Positions 38,005-53,956 of a stretch of DNA of 64,000 nt are shown one piece after another. The notes beneath the pieces were generated by a model. That model worked only from the letters and a program-made list of their open reading frames with translations. It was not told the DNA's origin and searched no databases. Position 1 is the stretch's first letter; each line of letters opens with the position of its first letter. The position numbers were made by a program, and so were the translations under genes. The stretch spans positions 145,813 through 209,812 of the forward strand of contig CASEOO010000030.1 in the NCBI GenBank assembly GCA_949289565.1, read 5' to 3'. This DNA is from an uncultured Bacteroidales bacterium (lineage in GTDB: Bacteria > Bacteroidota > Bacteroidia > Bacteroidales > UBA932).

Positions 38005-39522
38005 TTATATAAGCGGCTCTCCAGTCATTGCCGCAGGCTGAGGGATGCCCATCAGCTTCAGGATGGTAGGAGCGACGTCTGCGAGTTTCCCGTCTTTCAC
38101 GCTGTCTACTCCGGCGTTGATGACGATGAACTGCACAGTATTCAGCGAGTGCGCGGTGTTTGGAGATCCGTCTTCGTTGTAAGCGTGGTCTGCATTGCCG
38201 TGATCTGCAGTCAGGAGGACGACATAGTCATTGGCGACAGCCGTCTCTACGACTTCTTTCACGCATTTGTCCACTTTGGCTACCGCACGGCAGATGGCAG
38301 AGAATACGCCGGTGTGGCCTACCATGTCTCCGTTCGCGAAGTTCAGGATGACCATATCTTCCTTCCCTGTCTTCAGCACTTCGGTGAGCTTCTCAGTCAC
38401 TTCCTGTGCGCTCATTTCCGGGAGCAGGTCATATGTAGGGACTTTCGGCGAGTTCACCAGGATTCTGTCTTCATTTTCGAACTGGTCCTCGCGGCCTCCG
38501 TTGAAGAAGAAGGTTACATGTGCATATTTTTCAGTTTCGGCGATGCGGAGCTGATGCTTTCCAGCCTTGGCCACAGTCTCTCCGAGGGTGTCCTGTACGT
38601 TCTCCTTGTTGAACAAGATGTGGACTCCGTGGAATTTGTCATCGTATGGAGTGAAGCAGCAGTAGTACAGAGGCAGAGTCTTCATTCCGAAGTCCGGCAT
38701 GTCTTCCTGGGTGAGCACAGCTGTGATTTCACGGGCGCGGTCGTTCCTGAAATTGAAAAATATCACGGCGTCGCCTTCCTGGATGGTGCCCACAGGATTC
38801 CCGTCAGCGCCTGCGATGCATATAGGCTTGATGAATTCGTCTGTCACTCCTTCGTCGTATGAAGCTTGGATGCCTTCTGCGGCGGATGTGAATTTTGCGC
38901 CTTCTCCCTTGACCAGCATGTCATAGGCCAGCTTCACTCTTTCCCATCTCTTGTCGCGGTCCATGGCATAGTAACGTCCGCATATTGACGCCACTTTGCC
39001 TGTGGTCTCGGACATCTTCTTTTCCAGTTCCTCCACGAAGCCTTTCCCGCTTCTCGGGTCTGTGTCGCGCCCGTCCATGAAGCAGTGCACGAAGACTTTT
39101 TCAAGCCCGTACTGCTTCGCAACTGACAGGAATTCATATACGTGAGCCAGCGAGCTGTGCACTCCTCCCATGGATGCGAGCCCCATCAGGTGGAGCTGCT
39201 TCCCGTTCTTGGCGGCGTAGTCGTATACGGCCTTGATTTCAGGGTTGTCGAGCAGTTTGTGGTCTCTGCAGGCCATATTGATTTTCACGAGGTCCTGATA
39301 TACGACTCTGCCCGCGCCCAGGTTCAGATGGCCTACTTCGGAGTTTCCCATCTGGCCGTCAGGAAGACCCACATATTCTCCGCAAGCCTGGAGGTGGCTG
39401 AATGGATATTTGGCTCTCAGGGATTCTATATATGGAGCTCCCTGAGTGTAGATGGCGTTTGTCCAGTTGTGTTTGCCCTCGCCCCATCCGTCGAGGATCA
39501 TGAGAAGAACTTTTCTATTCAT
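38005..39522 (-). CDS. gpmI: 2,3-bisphosphoglycerate-independent phosphoglycerate mutase
   Basis: 505-aa ORF ([14 protein letters not shown] ... [12 protein letters not shown] ... TADHGNA). Confidence 0.95.
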
Positions 39523-39565
39523 ATTGCAATTTGATGAAATTTCATCGAGTTAATGTATATTTTAT

Positions 39566-39573
39566 TAAATTTG
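39566..39573 (+). promoter_or_regulatory. -7 promoter box (TAAATTTG) for rnr
   Basis: Exact TAnnTTTG 33 nt upstream of the ATG at 39606. Confidence 0.4.
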
Positions 39574-39584
39574 TGACTAATTCG

Positions 39585-39592
39585 CAAAGATA
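39585..39592 (-). promoter_or_regulatory. -7 promoter box (TATCTTTG) for gpmI
   Basis: Exact TAnnTTTG on the minus strand, 62 nt upstream of the ATG at 39522. Interleaved with the rnr promoter. Confidence 0.4.
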
Positions 39593-39605
39593 CAAATTTT
39601 TTATT

Positions 39606-41945
39606 ATGGCGGCGAGAAACAGAAGAAACAGAAGCGAGAAGAAAGAGAAAAAAGAAAAGAGGCCTGTTCTGACATTGACCGGAAGGGTCCAGATGACCAG
39701 AGAAGGGTATATTTTTGTCATCGTGGAAGGTGAAGCCGATGATGTGTTTGTGAAAGCGTCGAAGACGAAAGGCGCTCTGAACGGGGATATCGTGAAGGTG
39801 GCTGTGACGAAGGAGAAGGCCGGCGGGCAGAGGCGTGAAGGCATGGTGGTGGAGATTGTGGAGCGTTCGCGGAAGCCTTTTGTGGGAATACTGCATGTGG
39901 TCGGAGATCAGGCCTGGGTGCTTATGGAGAGCCGGGTGATGCCGTATGATATCGTGATACCAGTCATAGGGGCTGCGCCTGTGGGCTTCAAGAAGCGGAA
40001 AGAGCGGCTTGGCAGAGAAGGGAATCCCGAACAGGGCCCTGACAGGACCGGGTTTTTGAAAAAGACCGGGGATGACTCTTTTTCGGTGATAGGCGTATAT
40101 GAAACAGTGGACGGCGTCCGCAGCGAGCTGAAGGCACGTGCAGGCATGAAGGTGGCCGCTCTGGTGGACCACTGGGAGAAGAGCGAGGCCGCCCCTGTAG
40201 GACATCTGGTGGATGTGCTGGGAGAGCCTGGGGAGAATGATACCGAGATGCATGCTATATTGGCTGAATACGCCCTTCCGTACAGGTTCGAGCCTGAGGT
40301 GGAGAATGCCGCGGATGCTATTTCAGACCAGATCACGGCTGAAGACCTGAAAGGCAGAAGAGATTTCAGGGAGGTGACGACATTCACCATCGACCCTGCC
40401 GATGCGAAGGACTTTGACGATGCATTGTCTTTCAGAAAGCTGGAGAACGGGAACTTCGAGGTCGGTGTGCATATCGCCGATGTGACATATTATGTTAAGC
40501 CAGGAAGCATCGTCGATGAAGAGGCGAGGAACAGAGGCACTTCGGTCTATCTGGTGGACCGGACTGTGCCTATGCTTCCGGAAAAGCTGTCGAACAAGCT
40601 GTGCTCTCTCCGCCCGAACGAGGAGAAGCTATGTTTTTCAGCCGTTTTCGAACTGACTCCTCTTGCCCGCGTGGAATCGCAGTGGTTCGGTCGGACGGTC
40701 ATAGAGTCCGACTACAGGTTCGCTTATGAAAACGCCCAGCAGATCATCGAGGCAGGGAAAAAGGCGATGGAAACCGATTTTGTCTTCTCTGCATCCGGTC
40801 AGGAGAAGAAAGTCCCTGACGAGGTGAAAGAAGCGGTGGTGACGCTGAATGCATTGGCCTCCAAACTGAGAAAGAAAAGATTCGCGGCCGGGGCCATCAG
40901 TTTCGAGCGCCCGGAGATGAAGGTGGAAGTGGATGAAAAAGGCCGTCCTGTGAATGTCTATCAGAAGGTCTCCAAAGAAGCGAACTGGCTTATCGAGGAG
41001 TTCATGCTTCTGGCGAACCGCTGCGTGGCTGAGTTTGTGGCCACTAAATGCAAGACTCCGGCTTCGAAAGGCCGCAAGTCCGAGGCCAAGACCTTTGTCT
41101 ACCGTATCCATGACGAGCCGAATCAGGAAAAACTTGAAAATCTCCGCGGTTTTGTAGGCAATTTCGGCTACACTCTCGGCCAGATGAATTCCGGAAAAGA
41201 GATCTCCAAAGAGCTGAACCGCCTCTTCGCCGAGGCCAAGGACAAGCCCGAATTCAATGCCATCGAACTTTTGTCCTTGCGGACAATGGCCAAAGCCTGC
41301 TACAGCACAGACAATATCGGACATTATGGCCTGGCATTCAAATATTACACTCATTTCACCTCCCCTATCAGGCGTTATCCGGATATGATGGTGCACAGGC
41401 TTCTGGCCATGTATCTGGACGGAGTCCAGTCCCAGAAGAAAGAATATTACGAGGGACTGTGCAAGTATGCATCGGAAAGGGAAGTAGTGGCGGCCGATGC
41501 TGAACGCTCAAGCATCAAGTACAAGCTTGTGGAATTCATGCAGGACAAGGTGGGCTATGAGTTCGAAGGCCATATATCGGGCCTTACAGACTGGGGAATG
41601 TATGTGGAAATAGAGCCGACCAAGATAGAAGGCATGGTGGCTTTGCGGGACATAAAGTCGGATTTCTATGAATTCGACGAGGAAAGATACCGTATAGTAG
41701 GGCGCAGCTCCAAGATGGTGTACAATCTGGGCGACCCTGTGAAAATCCGTGTGAAGAAAGCTAATCTGGAGCAGAAGCTTCTGGATTACGAACTGGTGGA
41801 GACCGGTATAGAGGATCGCATTTCAGAGCAGGAGGCGGCCGCCCTGCAGGCGGAACGCGAGGCTCGCAAGGCTGCGCGCAAAGAGAAAATCCGCCGCGAT
41901 ATCAAGGCATCTAAAAAGCGTAAGGCCAGAACGAAAAAACAGTGA
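39606..41945 (+). CDS. rnr: Ribonuclease R
   Basis: RNB catalytic domain (TIDPADAKDFDDALS, HYGLAFKYYTHFTSPIRRYPD), an S1 domain and Lys/Arg-rich N- and C-terminal tails. I prefer the ATG at 39606 (MAARNRRNR) over the start at 39531. Confidence 0.9.
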   Translation: MAARNRRNRSEKKEKKEKRPVLTLTGRVQMTREGYIFVIVEGEADDVFVKASKTKGALNGDIVKVAVTKEKAGGQRREGMVVEIVERSRKPFVGILHVVGDQAWVLMESRVMPYDIVIPVIGAAPVGFKKRKERLGREGNPEQGPDRTGFLKKTGDDSFSVIGVYETVDGVRSELKARAGMKVAALVDHWEKSEAAPVGHLVDVLGEPGENDTEMHAILAEYALPYRFEPEVENAADAISDQITAEDLKGRRDFREVTTFTIDPADAKDFDDALSFRKLENGNFEVGVHIADVTYYVKPGSIVDEEARNRGTSVYLVDRTVPMLPEKLSNKLCSLRPNEEKLCFSAVFELTPLARVESQWFGRTVIESDYRFAYENAQQIIEAGKKAMETDFVFSASGQEKKVPDEVKEAVVTLNALASKLRKKRFAAGAISFERPEMKVEVDEKGRPVNVYQKVSKEANWLIEEFMLLANRCVAEFVATKCKTPASKGRKSEAKTFVYRIHDEPNQEKLENLRGFVGNFGYTLGQMNSGKEISKELNRLFAEAKDKPEFNAIELLSLRTMAKACYSTDNIGHYGLAFKYYTHFTSPIRRYPDMMVHRLLAMYLDGVQSQKKEYYEGLCKYASEREVVAADAERSSIKYKLVEFMQDKVGYEFEGHISGLTDWGMYVEIEPTKIEGMVALRDIKSDFYEFDEERYRIVGRSSKMVYNLGDPVKIRVKKANLEQKLLDYELVETGIEDRISEQEAAALQAEREARKAARKEKIRRDIKASKKRKARTKKQ

Positions 41946-42012
41946 AAATGTTATTAACCTGAGGCGGTGTTTTGCCGTCTCGTCCAATTGTTCCATTAAA
42001 TCTTTTTTATCT

Positions 42013-42804
42013 ATGAAAACAAAACTTATTTTAGTAGCGGCCGCCGCGCTGATGCTTCAGGGTCTCGCTGTGCCTGCGCTGGCGCAGATCACCACCGGCA
42101 AACCTTCATCGAAAGTCATCCGTACCGGGAACAGGGCGGAAGCTGGTGACTTCGGCCTTTATCTGGGAGCTAATCTGAACCTTTATGACGGATTCGAAGG
42201 CGAGACACAGTTCAAGGCTCTTCCGTTGCTTAACTTCAAGTATATGATGACAGACGAGGCCGAGCTGCGTCTGGGGCTGGAGCTTTACAAGGACTCTGAA
42301 AGGGCCAACGGATCTGTGGAAAACAATTCAAGCTTGATACCTGCCTCTTCACGCACATCTGATTCACGGGCTATGCTCTATCCTGGCTTCGCATGGCATT
42401 TTTCCAGCCGGAATCTTCTGGATGTGTATGTAGGAGCCGAGCTCCCTTTGGGCTGGGACAATTATACACTCGCATCGGAAAGCGGCGCTCCTGACGGTAA
42501 CGGCGTGTCTACTGCCATGGCTAAAACCACAAAACGCACCTTTATAGTGGGCCTTGGCGCATTTATCGGTATGCAGGCATATATAGCTGATCTTCCTCTG
42601 GCCCTGGGCGTGGAGCTGGGCATCAGCTCGAGGTATGACATCGGCACCAAATACAAGCACCAGTCGGAGACGAACGGCTCAGATCCGCAGATCTATTATA
42701 CCACGACTCTGGACCCTGGAGCTGTCCAGTATGACAAGCTGAGAGCCAGGACTGGCGAAATAGTGGGACAGGCCCGCATCACTCTGACTTATTACTTCAA
42801 ATGA
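42013..42804 (+). CDS. Putative outer-membrane beta-barrel protein
   Basis: 263-aa ORF with a signal peptide (LAVPALAQ), alternating amphipathic strands and a C-terminal LTYYFK. Confidence 0.55.
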   Translation: MKTKLILVAAAALMLQGLAVPALAQITTGKPSSKVIRTGNRAEAGDFGLYLGANLNLYDGFEGETQFKALPLLNFKYMMTDEAELRLGLELYKDSERANGSVENNSSLIPASSRTSDSRAMLYPGFAWHFSSRNLLDVYVGAELPLGWDNYTLASESGAPDGNGVSTAMAKTTKRTFIVGLGAFIGMQAYIADLPLALGVELGISSRYDIGTKYKHQSETNGSDPQIYYTTTLDPGAVQYDKLRARTGEIVGQARITLTYYFK

Positions 42805-43232
42805 ATGGGATTATGAAACTATATAGATTCTTGCTGCTGGCTGCAGTCGTTGCCAGTCTGTCAGCCTGCAGCGTTACAAGGCACAGGCCTTATGCCGTGG
42901 AGGACACGCGGCTGAATCTGGCGATGTCGGACCTGGAGTATCTCGGCGAATCGGAGATAAGCGTTGACTACAGGAAGTATGCAGGCTTCATTACAGTGAT
43001 CGACAGCATCAACGGAGTGCCGTATGACGGGGTGGAAATCAAGACTGCCGAGCTGGGCAATGTGCCTGGAGGCATGTATGACAAGCTTCACAGAGCGACG
43101 TATAAAGTCATCGAAGACTATCCTGAAGCCGAGTACTTCATGGTAGTGTCTCAAAACGTTTCCAGGACGCGTCTTTTCCTCGGGAGTGAAGTCAGTGTAA
43201 AAGCTAAAGTAAAAGCGTTCAAAATCAAATGA
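42801..43232 (+). CDS. Small lipoprotein of unknown function
   Basis: Lipobox (VVASLSAC). The start overlaps the upstream stop (ATGA). The alternative start MKLYRF at 42813 is equally plausible. Confidence 0.55.
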   Translation: MNGIMKLYRFLLLAAVVASLSACSVTRHRPYAVEDTRLNLAMSDLEYLGESEISVDYRKYAGFITVIDSINGVPYDGVEIKTAELGNVPGGMYDKLHRATYKVIEDYPEAEYFMVVSQNVSRTRLFLGSEVSVKAKVKAFKIK

Positions 43233-44056
43233 AAAAGTTCCTGATCCTGCTATCCTCTGTCCTGGCGATGATGCCGGGATGCATGTCTGAAAAAGATGCC
43301 TCGGATGTGATTCTGCTTGTCGATCCTTCGTATGTCAAAGCGGCCGAAGGGGATGTCGTCAGATTCAATATCGAGACATGGACTCTCCATGACCATATGG
43401 CATTGCTGGAGATATCGTCATTTGACCAGAAGACAGGGGAGGCAGGATTGGAATCCAGAACATTGGATGCCAGGAAGTATACAGGAGAATTCCTGTACAT
43501 TGTTCCAGAAACAGGGGGAGAAATCTCCAGGGTGGAAATTTCTTTTGAGTCCACAGACAATATGGGCAATACACAGTCTGTCACAGTTTATGTGGACATT
43601 TCGGGTGATGATGCAGCCATGGAAGAGTCCGCCTCTTCGGTGATGATGTATTCCCCGGCTTCAGGAAAACCGGACGGCTTTTCTTTGAAGACACTCCAGA
43701 CGCTGTATGTGTCGGCGTCAGAGAGTGCGGATGTGGATATATATGTGCGAGAGGCAGAGGAGACGGATGATCCTGACCGGATGAGCACTTCGTGGATGTC
43801 CGGGTCCGGACTTCTTTTCTGCAAGATGTCATCGGGCGTGGACTATGCCTCTATCACTCCATCACGTCTGAGGGCACTTTACGAGGCGTCCACTCTTTCT
43901 AAAACCGCAGTGGGCATCCGCCAGGGAGATGTGATATTGGTCGGCACTGACACCTCCCCTCTGGGAATCATTTTGGTGACAGGTGTATATGATGACCCAG
44001 GCACTGAGAACGACCGCTATATCTTCAATATAAAAGTTTTGCCGGACGGCCAATAG
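43229..44056 (+). CDS. Lipoprotein of unknown function
   Basis: Lipobox (LAMMPGC). The start overlaps the upstream stop (ATGA). 275 aa with no motif I recognise. Confidence 0.55.
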   Translation: MKKFLILLSSVLAMMPGCMSEKDASDVILLVDPSYVKAAEGDVVRFNIETWTLHDHMALLEISSFDQKTGEAGLESRTLDARKYTGEFLYIVPETGGEISRVEISFESTDNMGNTQSVTVYVDISGDDAAMEESASSVMMYSPASGKPDGFSLKTLQTLYVSASESADVDIYVREAEETDDPDRMSTSWMSGSGLLFCKMSSGVDYASITPSRLRALYEASTLSKTAVGIRQGDVILVGTDTSPLGIILVTGVYDDPGTENDRYIFNIKVLPDGQ

Positions 44057-44133
44057 TTCTATATGAAAAAATCTTCGTGACAGGGTTTATAGTGCTTCCA
44101 GGCCGGCGTTGTCAAGAATAGGCTTGAAACGGA

Positions 44134-47100
44134 ATGGGTGTCATAGCGTTCATAGATACGGAAATTGAAGCGAAGCATGGAAAGATTCTGGATGCTGGCG
44201 GCTTCAGGTCTGACGGACGCGAATACCACGGCCGTTCGATGACGGATTTCGCAAATTTTCTGAAAGGGGCGGATTATCTGTGCGGGCACAATGCCATCAA
44301 TCATGATTTAAAATATCTGGAGTCTGCAATCCCTTCTGTCAGCAGAATGAAGGACAGGACGATAGATACACTGTACTGGTCGCCTCTCCTTTTCCCGAGA
44401 AGACCTTATCATGCTCTCCTGAAAGATGACAAGCTTCAGGCTGACGAGCTCAACAATCCTCTTAATGATTCGAAAAAAGCATGTGACTTATTCAATGATG
44501 AAGTTGCTGCTTTTCTGAGGTTGAACGAGAATCTGAAAGAGATTTATTTCCGGTTGCTGGGCTCTGTCTCTGAATTCAAGGCTTTTTTCAGTTTTATGGA
44601 TTATCCAGAATCCGGAAAATCGAATGGCGGCTTTATTTCCAGGATGTTTCCAGGCATGTCTGCGAGAGAAACCGAGCGCCTGATTAAAGAATACCTGGGT
44701 GGCAGGATATGTGCCAATGCAAAGCTGGAGAAATATGTGTTGTCAGAGCCCGTGGCTCTTTCATATGCAGTCGCCATTGTTGATACGATGACTGCTGATC
44801 ATTCGGAACGGTCGCTGACTCCGCCATGGGTGTTGAGGAATTTTCCGGCTGTGGAGCAGATTGTTTTCAGACTCAGGTCTTCCCCGTGCCTGAAAGGATG
44901 CCAGTATTGCCGTGAGGCATCAGACATTCATGCAGGATTGAAAAGATGGTTCGGGTTCAGCTCGTTCAGGACATACGACGGCGAGCCGCTTCAGGAAAAG
45001 GCGGTGAGAGCGGCCATGGAAAACAAGTCCCTGCTGGCAGTGTTCCCTACTGGGGGAGGCAAGTCTCTTACTTTCCAGCTGCCTGCGCTTATGGCAGGGG
45101 AAAATGCATCGGCCCTGACAGTGGTTATTTCTCCGCTCCAGTCTTTGATGAAGGACCAGGTAGATAATCTGGAAACCAAAGGTGTCACTGAGGCCGTGAC
45201 AGTGAACGGTTTGCTGGACCCGATAGAACGGGCCAAGTCGTTTGAACGTGTCGAAAATGGTTCTGCTTCCATTTTGTATATTTCTCCGGAAGCATTGCGC
45301 TCGGTATCGATTGAACGGATATTGCTCAAGCGGAATATCGCCAGATTTGTGATAGATGAAGCTCACTGTTTTTCATCATGGGGGCAGGATTTCCGTGTGG
45401 ATTATCTATATATCGCAGATTTCATCAAGTCGATACAGGAGAAGAAGAATTTGCAGGAAAGCATTCCGGTGTCATGTTTCACTGCCACGGCCAAGCCTCA
45501 GGTCATCGAAGATATCATGTCTTATTTCAAAAGCCATTTATATATTGACCTGGAGCTTTTCACTGCCGCAGTGTCGCGCCCGAATCTTCATTATACCGTA
45601 TTGCCGGAGGCAGATGACACTGAGAAGTATCAGGCACTCCGGAGACTGCTGGAAGGAAATGACTGTCCGGCGATAGTTTATGTGACCAGGACGAAAAAGG
45701 CAGAAGAGATAGCGGAGTATTTGAGGCAGGATGGTTTCCAGGCATGTGCTTATCACGGTAAAATGTCATCAGAAACCAAAATCGCGAACCAGAATGCATT
45801 TATGGACGGAAGTGTCAGGATAATGGTGGCGACTTCTGCATTCGGGATGGGTGTGGACAAGAGCGATGTCGGCCTGGTGGTTCATTTTGAAATTTCAGAT
45901 TCACTGGAAAATTATGTGCAGGAGGCTGGAAGGGCGGGAAGGGATCAGAGTATTGAGGCAGACTGTTATGTGCTTTTCAATGAAGACGACCTGTCCAAGC
46001 ATTTCCTTCTTCTTAACCAGACCAAGATGACCATCAAGGAAATCCGCCAGGTCTGGAAGGCTGTCAAGGATTTGACACGCTTCCGTTCCAGAATTTCCAA
46101 TTCCGCTCTGGAAATAGCGAGGCAGGCCGGATGGGATGACGGCGTCTCGGATATTGAAACCAGGGTAAGGACTGCATTGGCGTCGCTGGAGCAGGCCGGC
46201 TACTTGAAACGTGGCCAGAATATGCCCCGGATTTTTGCTACGGGCATTCTTGCCAGGACTGCGCAGGAGGCGATAGACAAGATAGAGAGTTCTCCAAGGT
46301 TTGATGAAGGCCGGACCAGGGAGCATGCAGTCAGGATAATAAAAATGCTGGTGGCCAGCCGAAGCCGTAAAGGGTCGCCTTTAGATGAGGCAGAGTCTCG
46401 GGTGGACTATATAAGCGATCTGCTTGGGATTCCTAAGAAAGATACAGTGCATGCCATCAATCTGCTGCGCGAAGAAAGGATATTGGCGGATTCAAAGGAT
46501 GTCACTGCGTACTTCTCGAAAGACGACAGTGCCAGGAAGCCGGTGGCCGCGTTAAATTCTTTTGCCGCAGTTGAAAATTTCCTGTCAGGCCAGATAAAGG
46601 ATTGCGATGCCGTCAAGTGGGAGTATAAATGGCTCAATGAAACAGCATCATCGGCCGGAGTGAAGGGAGCGGCAGAGAAGAATGTCAAGACTATATTGAA
46701 TATCTGGGCGATAAATGGCTGGATAAAGAAAAGGTCGCATTCCGGCTCCAAAAATGTGGTAGAGGTCAAGTCTGAAATTCCGGCGGAAAAATTGAAGGAG
46801 CGGATTCAGGAGCGGCAGAAGCTGGCGCTTTTTATCGTGGAATATATTTACGGGCTTGTATCTGCAAATCCGGAAGCCTATGATACAGGATATGTGGATT
46901 TTTCCATTCTGGAATTGAAAGATGCTTATATAAATTCAGCCTTGGATTCTTCATCAGAGATTTCAGCTGATGATGTGGAGGATGCCCTCTTTTATCTTTC
47001 GAGGATCGGAGCTCTCAAGATTGAGGGAGGCTTCATGGTCATATACAATACTATGACTATCGAAAGGCTTGAAATGGACAATAAGAGACAATACAAAATC

Positions 47101-49008
47101 GCAGATTACGAGCGTCTTGAAAAATTCTATGAAAACAAGGTGCAGCAAATCCATATCGTAGGCGAGTATGCCAGGAAGATGATAGATGACTACAAGGATG
47201 CCCTGCAGTTTGTCGAGGATTATTTCCAGATGGGATATCCGTTTTTTCTGTCCAAATATTTCAAGGGCAGGCAGAAAGAAATTTCTGCCAATATCACACC
47301 GGCCAAATTCAGACAGATTTTCGGGGAGCTTTCCCCTTCCCAGCTTAAGATCATAAATGACAAGGATGCAAAATATATAGTAGTCGCAGCTGGCCCGGGA
47401 AGCGGGAAAACACGGGTGCTGGTGCATAAGCTGGCGTCGTTGATGATGCTGGAGGATGTGAAGCATGAACAGCTTCTGATGCTGACTTTTTCACGGGCCG
47501 CTGCCAATGAGTTTAAAACCAGGCTCTATGCCTTGATAGGCAATGCCGCCGCCTTTGTGGAAATCAAGACTTTTCATTCATATTGCTTTGACTTGCTGGG
47601 CAGGGTGGGGAGCGTCGAAAAGTCAGAAGATGTCGTCAGGACAGCAGTTTCGAAAATCAATGCTGGAGAGGTGGATGTCGGCAGGATTACCAAGACTGTC
47701 CTGGTGATAGATGAGGCCCAGGATATGGATTGTGATGAATTTGAGCTGGTGAAAACCTTGATAAAAAACAACGAGGACATGCGTGTCATTGCCGTAGGCG
47801 ATGATGACCAGAATATCTATGAATTCAGGGGCTCCAGTTCGGAATATATGAAGGGGCTTCTGTCGATGCCTGGAGCTGTGAAATATGAACTCGTAGAGAA
47901 TTATCGGAGCAAGAGGAATTTAGTGGAGTTTTCCGATCATTGCGTCCGTCTTGTCAGATCCCGCATGAAAAGCGGGCCGATTCTTCCTAAAAGGGATGGA
48001 AACGGGGTGCTGAAACTGGTGAGGCATTGCGGCCGGAATCTTGAAGTTCCTGTGGTTAGCGGCATTATGTCGGCGAGGCTGGCCGGCACTGTGGCTGTGT
48101 TGACAAGGACGAATGACGAGGCTCTGACAATTGCGGGCCTGCTTATGAGGAATGGCTTGCCGGCTCGTCTTATACAGTCAAATGATGGGTTCAATCTGTC
48201 AAAACTTGCGGAAATCAATTATTTCATGTATATGGCAGGATTCAGAAATGCCGGCCATGTCATAGAAGAACAAGACTGGAACAGGGCAAAGGCAAGAATG
48301 TTTGACAGATATGCCGGCAGTGACAAGCTTGATCTGTGCTGCAGACTGTTCCAGGCCTTCGAAGCTGCAAACCAGAAATCAAAGTATAAGTCGGATTTTG
48401 AAATATTTTTAGCAGAGTCCAGGCTCGAAGACTTCAGTCCTGCGGATTCATCTGCCATCCTGGTTTCCACGATACATAAGGTGAAAGGAAAAGAATTTGA
48501 CAATGTATTCCTGATGCTGGATAATTTTTCACCAGAATCTGATGAATCTTTGCGCCAGCTGTATGTGGCGATGACCAGAGCAAAGGATTGTCTGTATATT
48601 CACCTGAACGGTACATTTCTGGACAGAATTGAGGCCGACGGTATAGAGAGAATATATGACAGGAATATTTATGGGCCTCCTGAGGAAATATCTCTGAATG
48701 CTTCGATGCCTGATGTCTGGCTGAGTGACTTCAGAAGCAGGCAGCTGCCGGTATCTAATCTAAGATGCGGAGACAGGCTTGAGGTGATAGACGGGAAAAT
48801 ATGCGACAAATATGGGACTGAGGTCGTTAAACTCTCAAGTTCAATGCAGGGGAAAGTCCGGAAGGTGGAATCCCGAGGGTATGTCTTGTCTGGGGCGAAT
48901 GTGAATTTTGTTGTCTGGTGGCATGAAGAAAATCAGGAGAAGGATATTATGGTCCTTCTCCCGACTTTGCATTTCGTACTGCGTGGCGGCGGTGGAGAGC
49001 TAAGATAA
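44134..49008 (+). CDS. 1624-aa fusion protein: DEDD 3'-5' exonuclease + RecQ-family helicase + UvrD/PcrA-family helicase
   Basis: Exo I motif FIDTE (D at 44155) and Exo II motif GHNAINHDL. RecQ motifs 0-VI: FGFSSFR, PTGGGKS at about 45049, DEAH at 45355-45366, CFTATA, QEAGRAGRD. UvrD motifs: GPGSGKT at 47392-47412, VIDEAQD, GDDDQNIYEFRG, ENYRS, TIHKVKGKEFD, LYVAMTRAK. Confidence 0.85.
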   Translation: MGVIAFIDTEIEAKHGKILDAGGFRSDGREYHGRSMTDFANFLKGADYLCGHNAINHDLKYLESAIPSVSRMKDRTIDTLYWSPLLFPRRPYHALLKDDKLQADELNNPLNDSKKACDLFNDEVAAFLRLNENLKEIYFRLLGSVSEFKAFFSFMDYPESGKSNGGFISRMFPGMSARETERLIKEYLGGRICANAKLEKYVLSEPVALSYAVAIVDTMTADHSERSLTPPWVLRNFPAVEQIVFRLRSSPCLKGCQYCREASDIHAGLKRWFGFSSFRTYDGEPLQEKAVRAAMENKSLLAVFPTGGGKSLTFQLPALMAGENASALTVVISPLQSLMKDQVDNLETKGVTEAVTVNGLLDPIERAKSFERVENGSASILYISPEALRSVSIERILLKRNIARFVIDEAHCFSSWGQDFRVDYLYIADFIKSIQEKKNLQESIPVSCFTATAKPQVIEDIMSYFKSHLYIDLELFTAAVSRPNLHYTVLPEADDTEKYQALRRLLEGNDCPAIVYVTRTKKAEEIAEYLRQDGFQACAYHGKMSSETKIANQNAFMDGSVRIMVATSAFGMGVDKSDVGLVVHFEISDSLENYVQEAGRAGRDQSIEADCYVLFNEDDLSKHFLLLNQTKMTIKEIRQVWKAVKDLTRFRSRISNSALEIARQAGWDDGVSDIETRVRTALASLEQAGYLKRGQNMPRIFATGILARTAQEAIDKIESSPRFDEGRTREHAVRIIKMLVASRSRKGSPLDEAESRVDYISDLLGIPKKDTVHAINLLREERILADSKDVTAYFSKDDSARKPVAALNSFAAVENFLSGQIKDCDAVKWEYKWLNETASSAGVKGAAEKNVKTILNIWAINGWIKKRSHSGSKNVVEVKSEIPAEKLKERIQERQKLALFIVEYIYGLVSANPEAYDTGYVDFSILELKDAYINSALDSSSEISADDVEDALFYLSRIGALKIEGGFMVIYNTMTIERLEMDNKRQYKIADYERLEKFYENKVQQIHIVGEYARKMIDDYKDALQFVEDYFQMGYPFFLSKYFKGRQKEISANITPAKFRQIFGELSPSQLKIINDKDAKYIVVAAGPGSGKTRVLVHKLASLMMLEDVKHEQLLMLTFSRAAANEFKTRLYALIGNAAAFVEIKTFHSYCFDLLGRVGSVEKSEDVVRTAVSKINAGEVDVGRITKTVLVIDEAQDMDCDEFELVKTLIKNNEDMRVIAVGDDDQNIYEFRGSSSEYMKGLLSMPGAVKYELVENYRSKRNLVEFSDHCVRLVRSRMKSGPILPKRDGNGVLKLVRHCGRNLEVPVVSGIMSARLAGTVAVLTRTNDEALTIAGLLMRNGLPARLIQSNDGFNLSKLAEINYFMYMAGFRNAGHVIEEQDWNRAKARMFDRYAGSDKLDLCCRLFQAFEAANQKSKYKSDFEIFLAESRLEDFSPADSSAILVSTIHKVKGKEFDNVFLMLDNFSPESDESLRQLYVAMTRAKDCLYIHLNGTFLDRIEADGIERIYDRNIYGPPEEISLNASMPDVWLSDFRSRQLPVSNLRCGDRLEVIDGKICDKYGTEVVKLSSSMQGKVRKVESRGYVLSGANVNFVVWWHEENQEKDIMVLLPTLHFVLRGGGGELR

Positions 49009-49029
49009 ATTGTCACGGACGTGACAATT
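49008..49029. terminator. Shared hairpin between the convergent helicase and SGNH hydrolase genes
   Basis: 9-bp stem AATTGTCAC (49008-49016) pairs with GTGACAATT (49021-49029). Loop GGAC. No clear U-tract on either strand. Confidence 0.4.
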
Positions 49030-49031
49030 AC

Positions 49032-50120
49032 CTATCTGATTCCGTATTTTTTCAGAATTTTCAGTATGGGTTTCTCGATGGAGCGGGCCCATGCCATATA
49101 GCCCATATCTGACGGATGAGTGCCGTCGACAGAACTTTCCCTGGCGTCTTTTCCTGTGTCAGGAGTGATGAAATAGACATCCTTGTATTTTTTCACAGCT
49201 TCATTCATCAGTTTTTCTGCCATGTCCATCTTGGCCTGTTCGTTTCTGTCGTTGATCAGGCTGAAATTCCGGCTTTCCCTGTATATGGTCTGCATGAAGA
49301 TAAGTGGCACGCCAGGATGGGCCTCCTGTATCTTTTCTATGAACGGGAACAGCCTCTCTTTTATCATGGACGCTCCTGGATTTGAGAATGCATCGAAAAT
49401 GAATGCGTCAGCTTCCACATCTGCCAGGACGTCTGCAAAGTATGGCTGCATTTTGCAGTTCCCGCTGCATCCGAGGCTGAGAATCTGCAGCCCTGTGTGC
49501 CTCATGAACTGCATCGGATATGACATCCCCGGACGGCTGATGCTTATTCCCTGGGTGTAGCTTGAGCCGAATATGGCTATCCTGTGCCTGAAAGGCGACT
49601 CCATGCTTTCCAGCGAAGCGCCTTCCTCCACTCCTATCTTTACTGAATATAATTCGCTGTATATAGGCAGATAGAGCATGCATTCCTTTTCTGCATGGTC
49701 CATGTCGCTTATCAGCACCAGAGGCCTGTCTGATTTGGGATCGGCTGTCTTGGACGCGGCGTAGGTCCATACTCCGTCTTTCATGATATAGAGGTCATAG
49801 CCTCGGAGGGCTATACCCATCGTATTCGGAGCAGTGTTGTAATATCCGAACTCGCTTTTCACGGAAATGGTCGATGAGTTTGTCTTGAAAATCACGGCCA
49901 TTCCGGCAGGGCATCTTACCTGCTCGTTTTCTCCTTTTGTAAATCCTTTGTATTTGCAAGTGTCCACGCGATGATAAGGATTCGGGGTGTCCGGCAGAAT
50001 CTTTCCTATCAGGTTCAGTTCAGATGCTTCAGTGAATTCATACTTCACATTCTTCGGTGTCTGGGCCAGGATCGGCACGGCAAGCATCAGCATTGCGGAG
50101 AAAATCAGAATTTTTTTCAT
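49032..50120 (-). CDS. Secreted SGNH/GDSL-like hydrolase (probable carbohydrate esterase) with N-terminal beta-sandwich domain
   Basis: Signal peptide (LAVPILAQ), GDS-like block IAIFGSSYTQG, and a C-terminal DGTHPSD block consistent with the SGNH catalytic Asp/His. Confidence 0.65.
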   Translation of the reverse strand: MKKILIFSAMLMLAVPILAQTPKNVKYEFTEASELNLIGKILPDTPNPYHRVDTCKYKGFTKGENEQVRCPAGMAVIFKTNSSTISVKSEFGYYNTAPNTMGIALRGYDLYIMKDGVWTYAASKTADPKSDRPLVLISDMDHAEKECMLYLPIYSELYSVKIGVEEGASLESMESPFRHRIAIFGSSYTQGISISRPGMSYPMQFMRHTGLQILSLGCSGNCKMQPYFADVLADVEADAFIFDAFSNPGASMIKERLFPFIEKIQEAHPGVPLIFMQTIYRESRNFSLINDRNEQAKMDMAEKLMNEAVKKYKDVYFITPDTGKDARESSVDGTHPSDMGYMAWARSIEKPILKILKKYGIR

Positions 50121-50422
50121 GTTCGGATATTGTTTTAATGTTTCATTTCATAACCGGCATTCCATGACATGTTGATGGATATTGGCGGGATGTATTTGTA
50201 AATATATGAAAAATTCTGAGAACCGGGACATGTATTATAATATTGCGGGCAAAGAGTGCCCAAAGCGAGTCTTATACGTATTGTCCGGAATAATATAGTA
50301 GGCATGATAGTTCCTGTTTTGGAAAAATGACGTATATTTGCAAAAATATGAACAGATTAGACATAAGAATATGTAGGAAAGAATAACATAAGGGACATAT
50401 AAGCAGTATTTACTATTGGTTG

Positions 50423-50560
50423 TGGCGTACAGAACTTCCACTTTTATACAACAACTACAGCAATAGATAGCAAATACTCACACGATAGTGTGGGTGTTTT
50501 TGCATGTAGTTGTAGGTTGTGGAAGACCTTGTACGCAGCAAAGGTATCCACACTTTTTTT
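50423..50560 (+). promoter_or_regulatory. Long imperfect palindrome/hairpin followed by T7 in the leader of the downstream lipoprotein operon
   Basis: Nested complementary blocks: GCGTACA/TGTACGC, CTTCCAC/GTGGAAG, ACAACTAC/GTAGTTGT, and a central CACAC-GATA-GTGTG. An alternative pairing, GTGTGG (50488-50493) with CCACAC (50548-50553), is followed by TTTTTTT (50554-50560). Confidence 0.3.
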
Positions 50561-50608
50561 ATGCCCGGAACAGAGCGCAAGAAATAACACATCAAAAACA
50601 TTATAGCT

Positions 50609-51277
50609 ATGAAAACAAACATTATTCTGACAGCGGCTGCTGTCCTTCCTCTTTTGGTGTCATGCGGAGCATCAAGACAGTCGGTTCAACAGACTCAGCC
50701 GGATGTACAGAAAGCGGCAGTTTCAGGTACAGAAGCCAAAGTGAAGGAATGGCAGGCAAAAGGTTTTTCGGTGACAGGGGCGATGTCGACCTTCACCATG
50801 TATGATCTTCTGGAAATGCACAACAGGAAAATCCTGTCAGACCCGGACAATATAGTTCCGGCATTCGGTACAGGCATCGGAGCAGACAAGGCCACGGCAC
50901 AGTATGCGGCGCTTAACAATGCCGCGACCATGTACGCAACCAAGGCAGGAAGCGTGGTTTCAGGCGGAATGACAAACCAGTTCAGCACATTCGGGGAGCA
51001 GGGCAACAAGCTGATGGGGGCCTATACTCAGAAAGTGCAGGAATATATAATGCCGATAATGAGAGAAAGCCTTTCAGTCAGCAGGATAATCACGGAAAGT
51101 GTACCGCAGAAAGGCAGGTATGAGGTCGAGTCGTATTATATAATAGATGAATCCAAAGCTGCGGAAGCCAGGAGGAATGCCATGAATGAGGCCCTTGAAG
51201 AGACCGCAACGGAGCAGATATTCGGAGATGCTGTCGATGCATGGGTGAAAGAGTTTGTGAGACCGGATGTGGAGTAG
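50609..51277 (+). CDS. Lipoprotein of unknown function
   Basis: Lipobox (LPLLVSC). 222 aa with no catalytic motif I recognise. Confidence 0.55.
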   Translation: MKTNIILTAAAVLPLLVSCGASRQSVQQTQPDVQKAAVSGTEAKVKEWQAKGFSVTGAMSTFTMYDLLEMHNRKILSDPDNIVPAFGTGIGADKATAQYAALNNAATMYATKAGSVVSGGMTNQFSTFGEQGNKLMGAYTQKVQEYIMPIMRESLSVSRIITESVPQKGRYEVESYYIIDESKAAEARRNAMNEALEETATEQIFGDAVDAWVKEFVRPDVE

Positions 51278-51280
51278 GCG

Positions 51281-52186
51281 ATGAGGTTCGTTTTATCGGT
51301 TCTGGTCCTGATAGTCTTCACTACGGAGAATGTGCAGGCACAGAAGGTCATCCGTTCGTCATCCAGGATCAAACCTGTATGGATAAGGAATGTTGCATCT
51401 TTGGACAGGCAGCGTCATACCGGAACATACGAGTTCAGGATGGTGGAGAATTCCGGAGAGTCTCTACCCCAGCTTGAAAAGGACAGGATTTATGCCCTGG
51501 GAACGTATCTGGAATCCACGCATGACATTTCAGGAGTCATAGAAAGGGATTATGAAGATGTCCTGAGAGGCAACGGCTATACGGACAGGATATCGAATAG
51601 TCTTACATTCAAGACGAAAACATCGGTCCGGACATTCAATGCCGTGATGATAGACAATTATTGGGAGCAGGTAAGAGTCCCCGGGATCGGCATAAGATAC
51701 AATTATTACACGTTGTATGCGGTGACAGACCATCCCGGCGATTTCATCACAGATGATTTTGGAACGACGGAACTGTACGGGGCGAGAGGACTGTGGCGTT
51801 CGGCGATTGTGCCTGGCTGGGGACAGCTGTACAAGGGTCAGACAGTGAAAGGCAGTCTGATTCTTGGAGGATGCGCGGCACTGGCTGGCGGGATAGCTGT
51901 GACGGAAGTCCTCAGACAGGACTGTATCAGGCAGATATCACAGACGCACGAGGCATACCAGAAACAGGCGTATGCTGTCAGAGTGAATAATTACGCGACG
52001 GCGAGGAATATCTGTATCGGGGCAGCCGCCGCACTGTATGTATATGGTCTGATAGATTCGATAGTGTCTCCCGGAGCGAGACGGATAACCGTCATGGACA
52101 GGGTGGCTGGAGGCAGACGCTGGTCTGCAGTTCCTGCGGTGCTCCCGGAAGGGGCGGCCGGGATAGCGGCAGTCATGAAGTTTTAA
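51281..52186 (+). CDS. Membrane-associated protein with DUF5683-like segment
   Basis: Signal peptide (ENVQAQ). The motif WRSAIVPGWGQLYKGQ followed by hydrophobic helices is typical of the Bacteroidetes DUF5683 family. The start is 3 nt after the upstream stop. Confidence 0.5.
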   Translation: MRFVLSVLVLIVFTTENVQAQKVIRSSSRIKPVWIRNVASLDRQRHTGTYEFRMVENSGESLPQLEKDRIYALGTYLESTHDISGVIERDYEDVLRGNGYTDRISNSLTFKTKTSVRTFNAVMIDNYWEQVRVPGIGIRYNYYTLYAVTDHPGDFITDDFGTTELYGARGLWRSAIVPGWGQLYKGQTVKGSLILGGCAALAGGIAVTEVLRQDCIRQISQTHEAYQKQAYAVRVNNYATARNICIGAAAALYVYGLIDSIVSPGARRITVMDRVAGGRRWSAVPAVLPEGAAGIAAVMKF

Positions 52187-52208
52187 ACTGGAAAAAGAAA
52201 ATTAATTA

Positions 52209-53894
52209 ATGAAAAAAGTATTGTTGTTATTCAGTTCCATTGCAGCCTTTGTGTTGTCAGGCTGCAATGAGTATGAAGTGGACATGTTCGGAAGCATCAG
52301 CGGAGTCGTGTCAGATTCTGAAATGAACGAGCCGCTTTCCGGCGTGAAAGTGGCCTTGTCTCCCGGAGGTGTATCTCAGGTGACATCGAATGACGGGACT
52401 TTCGCTTTCGAAGGATTGTCCGCCCAGGAATATTCTCTGACTTTCACGAGAACAGGCTATGCCAGCCAGACACAGAAAGTGGCGGTCAAGGCCGGTGTGA
52501 CATCAAGTGTGCAGGTAACATTGGAGACCTCAGGTCCTGTGCTTTACGTATCCGAGGAGAAACTCGATTTCGAAGCGGATCTTACGATATTGTCTTTCGA
52601 TATCAGAAATGACGGAGACGGTGAACTGGAGTGGAAAATTTCCGAAAATGCAGACTGGATAGAATGCTCGGAATCAAGCGGAACGGCTGGGAATGGAACA
52701 TCATCGGTGACAGTGACGGTGTCGCGTTCGGATATAGAGCCGGGAACATACAGGGAGACGATAGTGGTGACTTCAAACGGAGGAGGGGAAACCATAGAGG
52801 TGACTATGACTGTCCAGGACAGTTTTTCCCAGTTTTATGTGACTCCTGAGAGCCTGGATTTCGGAGCGGAGGATATATCGCTGGAACTGCGGATTTACAA
52901 TGCCTGCGATTCGAAAATAAACTGGACGGCAGAGTCTGAAAACGGTTGGGTGATACTGGACAGAAAGTCAGGAAGCCTTCAGGCAGGAGACGAGGAGCGC
53001 ATTTCAGTGATAGTTTCACGGGAAGGTCTGTCTGCCGGTGATTATACATCCGGAATCAGATTCATGGCCGGGGGAAAGGCCGTGGATGTGCCAGTAAGGA
53101 TGTCCGTGGCATCGGAAGAAAAGCCCGTAGTGTCTATCGAACGTGTTTCCGGGATAACTTACAGCAGCGCATCCGTATCAGGCGCCATCATATCCGTAGG
53201 TACATCCGGCGTCAGCAGATACGGATTCTGCTGGAGTACAAGCCAGAATCCTACGCTGTCCGGCGATCATTCCGATATGGGTGATTGCATTTCTCCAAAA
53301 GCGTTTACAGGTACGATATCGAATCTCAAGTCCGAGACGAAGTATTATGTAAGGGCCTATGCGGAGAACGACGAGGGCATATCATATAGCGAGAAAACCC
53401 TGTCTTTCACGACATCGTCGTATGGCGGAGGCGGCAGTGGAGACGATGATGAACCTGTGGTGGAAGACTACAGTTCGGCGACTGTGGAGTCAGGGGACAG
53501 CAGGATTGTCCCTGAAATCGTAAGCTGCAAGAGAAGCGGTTCTACTGTCACTCTGACATATACACTGCGCAACAATGGTTTGGGAAGCATAAATGATTTC
53601 AGAATATATACTACGAACAGCAGCAGTCTGATTTCAGGCGGATACCGGACTGTGATAACGGACGACAACTACAACAATTATGTGACGTCTACCTATAAAT
53701 TCAACAATGTGACCCAAAGCCAGAATTATATCCTGAATGCGGCTTTCCCTGACAGGGTGAAGGTTACCGGGTCGGTAACTGTTCCGGATTTCGACCGTTC
53801 GGCAGAAAAATTGACGGTAATACTCGGAATATGGGCGTATGGCGAAACCCTCGCCGACCCTCGTATTTACTTTGAGGATGTCCCGATTTACTGA
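52209..53894 (+). CDS. Surface lipoprotein with a carboxypeptidase-regulatory-like domain, BACON-like repeats and an Ig/FN3-like region
   Basis: Lipobox (FVLSGC), a CarboxypepD_reg-like segment (GVVSDSEMNEPLSGVKVALSPGG ... YSLTFTRTGY), and two BACON-like segments (LDFEADLTILSF...VTVTVSR and LDFGAEDISLEL...VIVSRE). Confidence 0.6.
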   Translation: MKKVLLLFSSIAAFVLSGCNEYEVDMFGSISGVVSDSEMNEPLSGVKVALSPGGVSQVTSNDGTFAFEGLSAQEYSLTFTRTGYASQTQKVAVKAGVTSSVQVTLETSGPVLYVSEEKLDFEADLTILSFDIRNDGDGELEWKISENADWIECSESSGTAGNGTSSVTVTVSRSDIEPGTYRETIVVTSNGGGETIEVTMTVQDSFSQFYVTPESLDFGAEDISLELRIYNACDSKINWTAESENGWVILDRKSGSLQAGDEERISVIVSREGLSAGDYTSGIRFMAGGKAVDVPVRMSVASEEKPVVSIERVSGITYSSASVSGAIISVGTSGVSRYGFCWSTSQNPTLSGDHSDMGDCISPKAFTGTISNLKSETKYYVRAYAENDEGISYSEKTLSFTTSSYGGGGSGDDDEPVVEDYSSATVESGDSRIVPEIVSCKRSGSTVTLTYTLRNNGLGSINDFRIYTTNSSSLISGGYRTVITDDNYNNYVTSTYKFNNVTQSQNYILNAAFPDRVKVTGSVTVPDFDRSAEKLTVILGIWAYGETLADPRIYFEDVPIY

Positions 53895-53910
53895 TAACCT
53901 GATTTTATTT

Positions 53911-53956
53911 ATTGACCGGAAAAATCATGGATTTCATGTTTTTCCCGGTCAATTTT
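53911..53956 (+). terminator. Long hairpin terminator after the lipoprotein operon
   Basis: ATTGACCGGAAAAATCATG ... CATGTTTTTCCCGGTCAAT forms a roughly 19-bp stem with one bulge, followed by TTT. Confidence 0.5.

Follow-up and report, generated by a model that had tools for sequence, protein, structure and literature searches.

No bacterial repair helicases have been studied more closely than RecQ and UvrD, and the classic enzymes of proofreading are exonucleases of the DnaQ type. Here we describe a gene in which a RecQ-family motor, a UvrD-type motor and a predicted DnaQ-like exonuclease fold are combined on a single polypeptide of 1624 amino acids (aa). The gene lies at 44134–49008 on the forward strand of a 64,000-nucleotide (nt) stretch of DNA from an uncultured Bacteroidales bacterium of the UBA932 lineage (contig CASEOO010000030.1, positions 145,813 to 209,812; assembly GCA_949289565.1). 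This whole stretch is referred to as the window, and positions are counted from its first nucleotide.

The nearest parallel in domain order is found in WRN and the WRN-like proteins of eukaryotes, in which, as in the N-terminal half of the fusion protein, a DEDD 3′–5′ exonuclease is followed by a RecQ core and then by one or more winged helices. However, WRN contains a single helicase whereas the fusion protein has two motors, and the WRN exonuclease is of the DEDDy type, with a catalytic tyrosine where the fusion protein has an asparagine. WRN also has the RecQ zinc subdomain and the RQC and HRDC domains, none of which was detected in the fusion protein. As no sequence similarity to the WRN exonuclease was detected, the shared domain order is probably convergent. 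The closest solved exonuclease–helicase fusion is Staphylococcus aureus DinG (PDB 9ii8 and 8zef), where a DnaQ-like exonuclease is joined to a superfamily 2 (SF2) helicase. It was also the best structural match of the N-terminal domain, with a Foldseek E value of only 2e-3 and 14% identity. The helicase of DinG is, however, of the XPD/DinG type, and the protein has neither a superfamily 1 (SF1) motor nor a winged-helix array.

RecBCD, AddAB and AdnAB likewise bring two motors and a nuclease to DNA ends, destroy foreign linear DNA and contain an SF1A UvrD-like motor. In contrast to the fusion protein these are multi-subunit enzymes, and their nuclease is of the PD-(D/E)XK type rather than DEDD; in addition, either their motors have opposite polarity (RecB and RecD) or one motor is inactive (AddB), whereas both motors of the fusion protein are predicted to run 3′-to-5′ and one of them belongs to SF2. 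No PD-(D/E)XK (RecB-family) domain was matched by Pfam in the fusion protein, and the recB and addA models matched its SF1 motor only. Among defence systems, Gabija (GajA/GajB), the DpdF component of the Dpd system and PsyrT/RqlH are similar in that they match single modules, and in the stand-alone or island-borne lifestyle of many of the relatives. The window, however, lacks their partners (GajA, DpdA-K and PsyrA/RqlI), nor are these conserved next to the gene in the 84 loci of relatives that were compared. Finally, Bacillus subtilis MrfA/MrfB, reportedly a mitomycin repair helicase and a DnaQ-like exonuclease, couples a helicase to a DEDD-family exonuclease in an accessory excision pathway and so provides a precedent for a repair function. 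MrfA and MrfB differ in being two separate proteins, in that MrfA is a DUF1998 DEXH helicase and not a RecQ, and in having no UvrD-like motor. By its sequence, then, the fusion protein is a member of both the RecQ family and SF1A at the level of the motor cores, and carries a variant of the DEDD exonuclease.

The gene and its modules are listed here, with the type of evidence in brackets; dN/dS is the ratio of non-synonymous to synonymous substitution rates, AF2 is AlphaFold2 and HMM is hidden Markov model.

44134..49008, forward strand, including the stop codon: whole gene, exonuclease–RecQ–UvrD fusion (open reading frame, domain matches, indel-free assemblies, dN/dS)
44134..44523, forward strand: aa 1–130, predicted DnaQ/PolB-type DEDD 3′–5′ exonuclease fold (AF2, Foldseek and invariant residues; no HMM matches)
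44524..44928, forward strand: aa 131–265, all-helical domain with four invariant cysteines (AF2 secondary structure, alignment)
44929..46053, forward strand: aa 266–640, RecQ-family SF2 helicase core (Pfam DEAD and Helicase_C, TIGR00614, cross-phylum motifs)
46054..47328, forward strand: aa 641–1065, linker, with a predicted tandem of about three winged-helix domains at aa ~705–965, nt 46246–47028 (AF2, Foldseek)
47329..48603, forward strand: aa 1066–1490, compact UvrD/PcrA-type SF1A motor (Pfam, cross-phylum motifs)
48604..49005, forward strand: aa 1491–1624, C-terminal domain (alignment A5)

The gene is one uninterrupted open reading frame (ORF) with an ATG start and no internal stop codons, as judged from the ORF list and the translation. 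A first-pass annotation, made from the letters of the sequence, had read it as a single ORF with three enzyme modules in the order exonuclease, RecQ, UvrD; the ORF, Pfam, TIGR00614 and the predicted fold agree with this, and all of the motifs quoted in that annotation were found in the translation. Contigs from three independent metagenome runs span the ORF, one of them identical and two ~96% identical, with no internal indels; there was thus no frameshift or stop splitting the modules in any of the three assemblies. The 96%-identical relative of the protein is of equal length. Comparison with this relative gave a dN/dS of 0.116 for the whole gene and values of 0.06–0.26 for the individual modules, and by these ratios the gene is under purifying selection, junctions between the modules included. 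A 2023 metagenome run contains the window's 43900–49200 sequence whole and several chicken-gut metagenomes contain ~96%-identical versions, which makes the chicken gut the probable habitat of the Bacteroidales bacterium concerned. Small metatranscriptome contigs also match the gene, which is weak evidence of transcription.

We considered whether adjacent exonuclease, recQ and uvrD genes might have been merged through a sequencing error, as an artefact of assembly or annotation. The indel-free contigs of the independent runs and the hundreds of equal-length homologs in isolates and metagenome-assembled genomes of different phyla rule out a frameshift or merged genes, and the purifying selection that runs across the module junctions also argues against an artefact, which we regard as scarcely conceivable. 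The gene had further been described as more AT-rich than its flanks. The direction of this difference is correct but it is marginal, the guanine-plus-cytosine (GC) content being 0.474 for the gene, 0.514 and 0.502 for the 10-kb flanks and 0.481 for the neighbouring GDSL gene. AT-richness was dropped as a signal of transfer in the window, as the dip is only ~3–4 GC points and lies inside the range of the neighbours.

The sequence models were silent on the N-terminus. Residues 1–270 gave no significant match in Pfam, NCBIfam, PADLOC or the PDB sequences, family profiles included. The exonuclease models of Pfam (RNase_T, DNA_pol_A_exo1 and others) gave no match at E ≤ 10, and the sole NCBIfam match was DnaQ at an E value of 0.1. 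The exonuclease assignment therefore rests on the fold, as given by AF2 and Foldseek. An AF2 model of residues 1–265, made with 11 family sequences, had a predicted local distance difference test score (pLDDT) of 83.7 and a predicted template modelling (TM) score of 0.83, with residues 1–90 mostly above a pLDDT of 90. It consists of a β1-β2-β3-α-β4-α-β5-α core followed by an all-helical domain. When the N-terminal model was searched against the PDB with Foldseek, all of the top matches were DEDD-type 3′–5′ exonuclease domains, including those of S. aureus DinG, archaeal PolB, T7 DNA polymerase, Escherichia coli Pol II and RNase AS (E values from 2e-3, probabilities up to 1.0 and a TM score of 0.54 for RNase AS). 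Against the predicted viral structures of BFVD, the matches were polymerase proofreading domains and proteins named as "3′-5′ exonuclease" or as RNase H-like, with E values down to 1.6e-4.

In this fold Exo I corresponds to D8/E10, Exo II to H52-N53...D58, which has the epsilon-like HNxxxD pattern, and Exo III to N107-N108-P-L-N-D112. The acids D8, E10, D58 and D112 were invariant, both among 16 Bacteroidota sequences and in Clostridia, Campylobacterota and Proteobacteria homologs with an overall identity of only 32–34%, and H52, H57 and H93 were invariant or nearly so across the homologs. The position in Exo III that is a histidine in DEDDh enzymes (H-x4-D) or a tyrosine in DEDDy enzymes (Y-x3-D) is an invariant asparagine, N107. 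Position 108 is either asparagine or aspartate, and the motif in all lineages compared is N-[ND]-P-x-x-D. The dN/dS of the exonuclease module was 0.17. The N-terminal domain, as modelled, has the DEDD exonuclease fold and its metal-binding site, and the canonical general base is absent; given the invariant asparagine in place of histidine or tyrosine, the family would be a DEDD-fold variant and not a standard DEDDh or DEDDy member. A DnaQ-like exonuclease had been suggested in the first-pass annotation together with a doubt about Exo III, in which no obvious histidine or tyrosine was seen. The fold and the invariant acids bear out the suggestion, the HMMs did not, and the doubt was well founded and applies to the whole family. 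Nor were the catalytic residues degenerate on alignment, the four DEDD acids and the RecQ and UvrD motifs all being invariant.

In the adjoining helical domain, just N-terminal of the RecQ core, four cysteines are invariant: C193 and C252-x3-C256-x2-C259 (nt 44710–44712 and 44887–44910). This cluster was missing only in the Aliarcobacter plasmid homolog, and in Proteobacteria the spacing varies to CX4CX2C. From their conservation the four cysteines presumably form a zinc or iron–sulphur site. That such a site stands in for the missing zinc subdomain of RecQ is speculation.

The first motor contains the core motifs of RecQ, with a Walker A sequence TGGGKS (K310), DEAH at 408–411 and QEAGRAGRD at 596–604, all invariant across phyla. 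Pfam matched DEAD at 285–460 and Helicase_C at 497–604, and the family model TIGR00614 (recQ_fam) scored 277.5 bits against a cut-off of 219.8, which places the motor in the RecQ family. The equivalog HMMs did not identify it as a RecQ ortholog, the scores being 310 bits against a cut-off of 640 for TIGR01389 and 235 bits against 1015 for NF008279. The match to the RecQ ortholog model was confined to model positions 5–352 of 591, and the C-terminal region of RecQ is therefore missing. RecQ_Zn_bind, RQC and HRDC gave no Pfam match, even at E ≤ 10 on residues 605–1082, and there is no cysteine cluster after the core in the translation. The motor is thus complete but without RQC or HRDC domains, as the initial reading of the sequence had it.

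The linker between the motors had been noted as ~440 aa with no recognisable motif. With regard to sequence this holds, since residues 605–1082 had no significant match in Pfam, NCBIfam, PADLOC or the PDB sequences and only a weak match to DUF4423, but structure prediction gives a different picture. An AF2 model of residues 606–1066 had a mean pLDDT of 62.5, rising to 70–92 in the central ~260 residues (705–965), where three helix–strand patterns of the winged-helix type are seen. The ends are helical and of low confidence in isolation; their packing partners are probably the motors, which the model omitted. Foldseek matches to the linker were weak (E ≥ 0.08) but consistently of the winged-helix type, namely MarR, PadR, BlaI, RPC62 and Cdc6/ORC. 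The linker is also conserved to the same extent as the motors, with a mean column identity of 71% and a dN/dS of 0.095, which argues for a functional DNA- or protein-binding array rather than a spacer. On the basis of this moderately confident model we read the linker as a tandem array of winged helices, which need not be homologous to that of RQC.

For the second motor, Pfam matched UvrD-helicase/AAA_19 at 1067–1232 and UvrD_C/UvrD_C_2 at 1395–1491. The motifs GPGSGKT (1087–1093), DEAQD (1193–1197), GDDDQN (1222–1227), NYRS (1256–1259), TIHKVKGKEFD (1446–1456) and YVAMTRAK (1477–1484) were all found. The scores for PF00580 (120 bits) and PF13361 (82 bits), and the invariance across phyla of motifs I, Ia and II–VI, place this motor in SF1A; with all of the SF1A motifs present it is a complete UvrD/PcrA-type motor, as first proposed. 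It was not recognised as an ortholog of UvrD, PcrA, Rep or helicase IV, for which the equivalog HMMs gave 78–115 bits against cut-offs of 543–1168. Because the motif spacing is short at the places of the 1B and 2B domains, we infer that these domains are small. The C-terminal domain is the least conserved module, with a dN/dS of 0.22, although W1596 and L1609-P1610 are invariant within Bacteroidota. Residues 1483–1624 had no significant match in Pfam, NCBIfam, PADLOC or the PDB sequences.

More than 100 full-length homologs were listed, with lengths of 1599–1672 aa, identities of 57–96% and coverage of 99–100%; where a name is given, it is usually "RecQ family ATP-dependent DNA helicase". When one genome per species was scanned, at least 594 loci were found, in all classes of Bacteroidota and in large metagenome-assembled contigs of Lachnospiraceae and Oscillospiraceae, with the proviso that the taxonomic labels of metagenome-assembled genomes may be wrong where contigs are short. 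A profile of the N-terminal domain matched 1440 representative clusters. The complete proteins in the best 150 of these were almost all 1580–1750 aa long and the rest were fragment-like, so that the domain architecture is fixed throughout a large family. Unusual at first sight, this architecture is uncharacterised but not rare in databases.

The family tree is in conflict with taxonomy, and identities across classes reach 78–93%. For example, the Arenibacter protein (Flavobacteriia) is 78% identical to that of Desertivirga (Sphingobacteriia), 86% to that of Saprospiraceae and 81% to that of an uncultured Bacteroides, and the Pedobacter protein is 81% identical to that of Terrimonas (Chitinophagia), whereas the Bacteroidales members fall into several clades with a mutual identity of only 50–60%. 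At many loci the GC content of the fusion gene is off that of the flanks by 5–14 points. A coherent Clostridia clade matches its flanks and appears to be compositionally adapted to its hosts. Searches with tblastn found full-length copies on plasmid-labelled replicons of Bacteroides finegoldii and Phocaeicola massiliensis (50%) and on pACIB of Aliarcobacter cibarius (34%), together with matches of ~80–88% coverage and 28–32% identity on plasmids or chromids of Allochromatium, Cereibacter, Paracoccus, Sulfitobacter, Rhizobium and Nostoc. Twelve viral contigs in IMG/VR carry a full- or near-full-length copy. The conflict between tree and taxonomy and the discordant GC content show, at the level of sequence comparison, that the family has moved horizontally among the classes of Bacteroidota and into Clostridia, with distant relatives reaching plasmids of Proteobacteria, Campylobacterota and Cyanobacteria, and is not a phylum-wide housekeeping ortholog. 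Whether the fusion might be a universal housekeeping ortholog had been raised at the outset; it is ruled out by the same two observations together with plasmid and prophage carriage, and the neighbourhoods also vary. The occurrence of an identical protein in varied contexts, which was sought as proof of recent mobility, found no support: the proteins P0026 (22 contigs) and P0073 (20 contigs) each have a single context.

We then compared the neighbourhoods of the fusion gene in the 84 loci. All-against-all clustering of the flanking ORFs gave no conserved partner gene or operon, the commonest family occurring in 9 of the 84 loci at varying positions, and by this comparison the family is shown to be encoded as a stand-alone gene. 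Among the 137 nearest neighbours, Pfam identified ResIII (five), AAA_21 (three) and two each of SLFN-type helicases, SWI2/SNF2, HSDR_N, Fic and Toprim, as well as nucleotidyltransferases and helix-turn-helix proteins. These neighbours matched 281 PADLOC families, compared with 88 for 137 control ORFs located 6–10 kb away; as such ORFs in the relatives' loci are the only comparison, the association with defence is semi-quantitative. Strong PADLOC matches among the nearest neighbours were PDC-S41 (2e-285), HEC-01A, SoFic, PbeA and HNH.

Individual loci were of several kinds, with clear islands in Desertivirga brevis and on the Allochromatium and Cereibacter plasmids. In D. brevis the fusion gene is flanked upstream by a pair of AAA_15/21 ATPases and downstream by a type I restriction–modification (RM) operon. 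On the Allochromatium plasmid it is beside a type I RM system and an HNH endonuclease, on the Cereibacter plasmid it lies amid RES and BrnT toxins and H-NS, and on the Aliarcobacter plasmid it is beside ParAB and Rep. Toxin–antitoxin pairs, a reverse transcriptase, OLD-like ATPases and transposases are found near the gene at other chromosomal loci. In the 10 IMG/VR contigs that were examined, large serine recombinases account for five of the ORFs near the gene; also present are several methyltransferases, an AlwI endonuclease, a type IIG-like enzyme, AbiEi and RhuM. The hint of a defence function in the first-pass annotation is thus supported circumstantially by the loci of relatives, but the window's own neighbourhood gives no support.

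Three large ORFs in these loci were considered as a possible hidden partner and rejected, as they are unrelated to one another and to the fusion protein: a 1400-aa ORF with a NOV_C match only, inside the D. brevis type I RM operon (locus L136, 19080–23279); a 1305-aa ResIII and Eco57I-methylase (type IIG-like) enzyme next to a homolog (L105, 8220–12134); and a 1340-aa SMEK-domain protein next to another (L113, 3186–7205). The B. finegoldii replicon (L098; 'plasmid 6', NZ_OY725908.1, 105 kb) is typed as non-mobilizable and carries chromosome-like genes (nfo, a TonB receptor and a sigma factor). The fusion gene is at the junction of these chromosome-like genes and an SSB/ParA/ParG/SLOG block, and the replicon assignment may deserve checking.

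Within PADLOC, matches to the fusion protein were to single modules: GajB matched the UvrD module (≤153 bits), and DpdF (333 bits) and PsyrT (268 bits) matched the RecQ core. As only single modules were matched and the partners are absent, the fusion protein, on its sequence, is not a member of any described defence system.

The reading that we favour, at about even confidence, is that the fusion protein is a mobile stand-alone nuclease–helicase that acts on foreign or aberrant DNA and has a role in conflict with mobile DNA. We favour it because of the horizontal spread of the family, the lack of partners, the location of copies on plasmids and as prophage cargo, and the apparent enrichment of defence genes among the neighbours. 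RecQ-family cores and SF1A motors of the UvrD/PcrA/Rep type translocate 3′-to-5′. Joined in one protein, a pair of such motors could not pursue a single DNA end in the manner of RecB and RecD. As an accessory, self-contained enzyme, the protein would probably be loaded by its winged helices at DNA ends, nicks, gaps or branched replication intermediates, where the duplex would probably be opened by the two ATP-driven motors, both predicted to move 3′-to-5′. On antiparallel strands at a nick, gap or branch the motors would part, so that the opening would widen both ways; alternatively, each motor might work on a separate arm of a fork. The freed 3′ end would be passed to the N-terminal exonuclease, with the winged helices serving to grip the duplex or to recognise the branch. 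The most likely role would be to restrict the DNA of phages, plasmids or integrative elements, and not core repair of the chromosome. We also put forward, tentatively and at somewhat less than even confidence, a more specific form of this proposal. The protein would be a previously unrecognised single-gene immune or anti-plasmid system that senses invading DNA or DNA in aberrant replication (for example nicked, gapped, rolling-circle or transfer intermediates), opens it both ways by means of two 3′-to-5′ motors from different superfamilies and destroys it with a non-canonical DEDD(N) exonuclease. It would then be a bacterial functional analogue of WRN plus UvrD, spread through several phyla by plasmids, prophages and defence islands.

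A number of observations weigh against a role in conflict with mobile DNA. In the window itself, the fusion gene is preceded by RNase R and three envelope ORFs and followed by a GDSL esterase on the opposite strand, all of these being housekeeping or envelope genes. The 96% and 72% relatives have it at the syntenic position, in the interval PepM3-PMI-iPGM-RNase R ... AhpC-ABC2-ABC2, with differing immediate neighbours; in the window's lineage the gene is therefore, as judged by synteny, a stably inherited chromosomal resident of a locally variable spot. Other members are stable between ispF and a GH20 gene in 22 contigs. By our own count, only about one tenth of the 137 nearest neighbours are defence-like and most are ordinary, and the control ORFs 6–10 kb away also hold Wadjet, Lamassu and type I RM genes. 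Carriage by complete phage genomes was dropped, since INPHARED contained only partial matches of the size of the RecQ core and no full-length copy. No model in PADLOC-DB v2 matched the fusion protein over its full length, and an incomplete literature search by exact-word matching found no description, phenotype or biochemistry of the family. Sequence identity is at least 50% across two phyla, linker included, which is unusually high for an immune gene. The asparagine at the position of the general base means that exonuclease activity may be weak or nil. Finally, the polarity of both motors is predicted from family membership only.

The chief alternative, which we consider possible but rather unlikely, is that the protein works in accessory DNA repair. 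The protein would here be an accessory genome-maintenance enzyme, in which a WRN-like half and a UvrD-like stripper or unwinder act on the cell's own stalled forks, gaps, crosslinks and recombination intermediates, with mainly vertical inheritance and occasional transfer. Such a function would fit the stable syntenic chromosomal sites amid housekeeping genes (in the window's clade and for P0026 and P0073), the strong purifying selection in every module and the very high sequence conservation that extends to the linker. All of the parts come from repair families, and both the window's clade and locus L001 have a peroxiredoxin gene in the vicinity. It is harder to reconcile with the incongruence of tree and taxonomy, with 78–93% identity across classes, with the discordance in GC content between gene and flanks at many loci, and with carriage on plasmids and on prophage-like contigs beside recombinases. 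Moreover, defence and toxin–antitoxin genes appear enriched among the immediate neighbours, and none of the 84 loci showed an association with SOS or repair operons. A further possibility, which we think improbable, is that the protein serves the mobile elements themselves, in their establishment, replication, recombination or escape from host nucleases or restriction, and that the copies on chromosomes are either relics of such elements or cargo that has been domesticated. In Aliarcobacter the pACIB copy adjoins ParA/ParB and a Rep/DnaB-like replication module, on the B. finegoldii replicon it borders the SSB/ParA/ParG block, and the 10 IMG/VR contigs with their five serine-recombinase neighbours also have a capsid gene, a DUF2800 protein and a family A polymerase nearby. 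However, most of the 84 loci have no mobile-element backbone within 10 kb and the complete phage genomes of INPHARED have no full-length copy, while the copies on viral contigs are in the cargo zone with RM genes rather than in replication modules. The long-term chromosomal synteny in the window's clade also argues against such a factor.

The remaining alternative concerns the mechanism and is independent of the question of role. The DEDD fold might be catalytically dead, or a sensor of 3′ ends or nucleotides, so that the protein would be a pure dual translocase that displaces proteins, or a sensor of DNA ends with the hydrolysis of ATP or deoxynucleoside triphosphates as its output; hydrolysis of this kind has reportedly been proposed as the output of GajB. 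The residue at the histidine/tyrosine position is invariantly asparagine, which is not a general base, no exonuclease HMM recognises the domain, and the AF2 model is of low confidence near residues 99–110, just before Exo III. Set against this, the four metal-binding acids are invariant across phyla in a module with a dN/dS of 0.17, which is hard to explain without metal-dependent chemistry, and H52, H57 or H93 could supply the base. We regard a catalytically silent exonuclease fold as unlikely.

Several other features of the locus were noted. The three envelope ORFs between RNase R and the fusion gene are tightly packed (42013–44056, forward strand) and comprise an outer membrane protein-like ORF of 263 aa with a signal peptide and two lipoproteins (143 and 275 aa), each with a lipobox cysteine. 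Pfam matched none of the three. As neither the 96% nor the 72% relative has them at the corresponding place, they were rejected as partners, and they look like a local insertion. In the relative X5, 1-base deletions are found at 44049, in the last codons of the upstream lipoprotein ORF, and at 44065, in the intergenic spacer just past it. An antisense ORF of 81 aa (44059–44304, reverse strand) overlaps the start of the fusion gene. Several more antisense ORFs, of 90–170 aa, lie within the gene, in line with chance expectation for a 4.9-kb gene with a GC content of ~47%.

On comparison with loci L084 and L087, the region from RNase R to the AhpC/ABC2/ABC2/HlyD-like cluster (~39500–58000) is a variable spot in the lineage. 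The GDSL esterase is downstream of the fusion gene in the window and upstream in one relative, and in place of the window's neighbours the relatives carry a glutamine synthetase, a TadA-like deaminase or an AAA_14/DUF4143 ATPase. Genes specific to the window at 50609–53894 encode a 222-aa protein, a DUF5683 protein and a BACON/CarboxypepD_reg protein.

The sequences of this family are already public, labelled generically. The present analysis adds the recognition of the exonuclease fold and its asparagine variant, the four-cysteine domain, the winged-helix array, the architecture that is fixed across phyla, and the mobile, defence-adjacent lifestyle. Two-thirds of the protein go unseen under the label "RecQ family ATP-dependent DNA helicase", and the exonuclease fold, which none of the sequence models picks up, is missed altogether. 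With RecQ, UvrD and DnaQ-type activities on one chain, the family is a natural experiment in coupling a nuclease to two motors of the same predicted polarity, and the protein makes a good candidate for a DNA-defence or repair machine built from one polypeptide. Should its function be repair, the WRN architecture would have a counterpart in bacteria. Defence in Bacteroidota and Clostridia has been explored much less than in E. coli, and if the fusion does restrict mobile DNA it would be a compact single-gene system that is common in the gut and environmental members of both groups.

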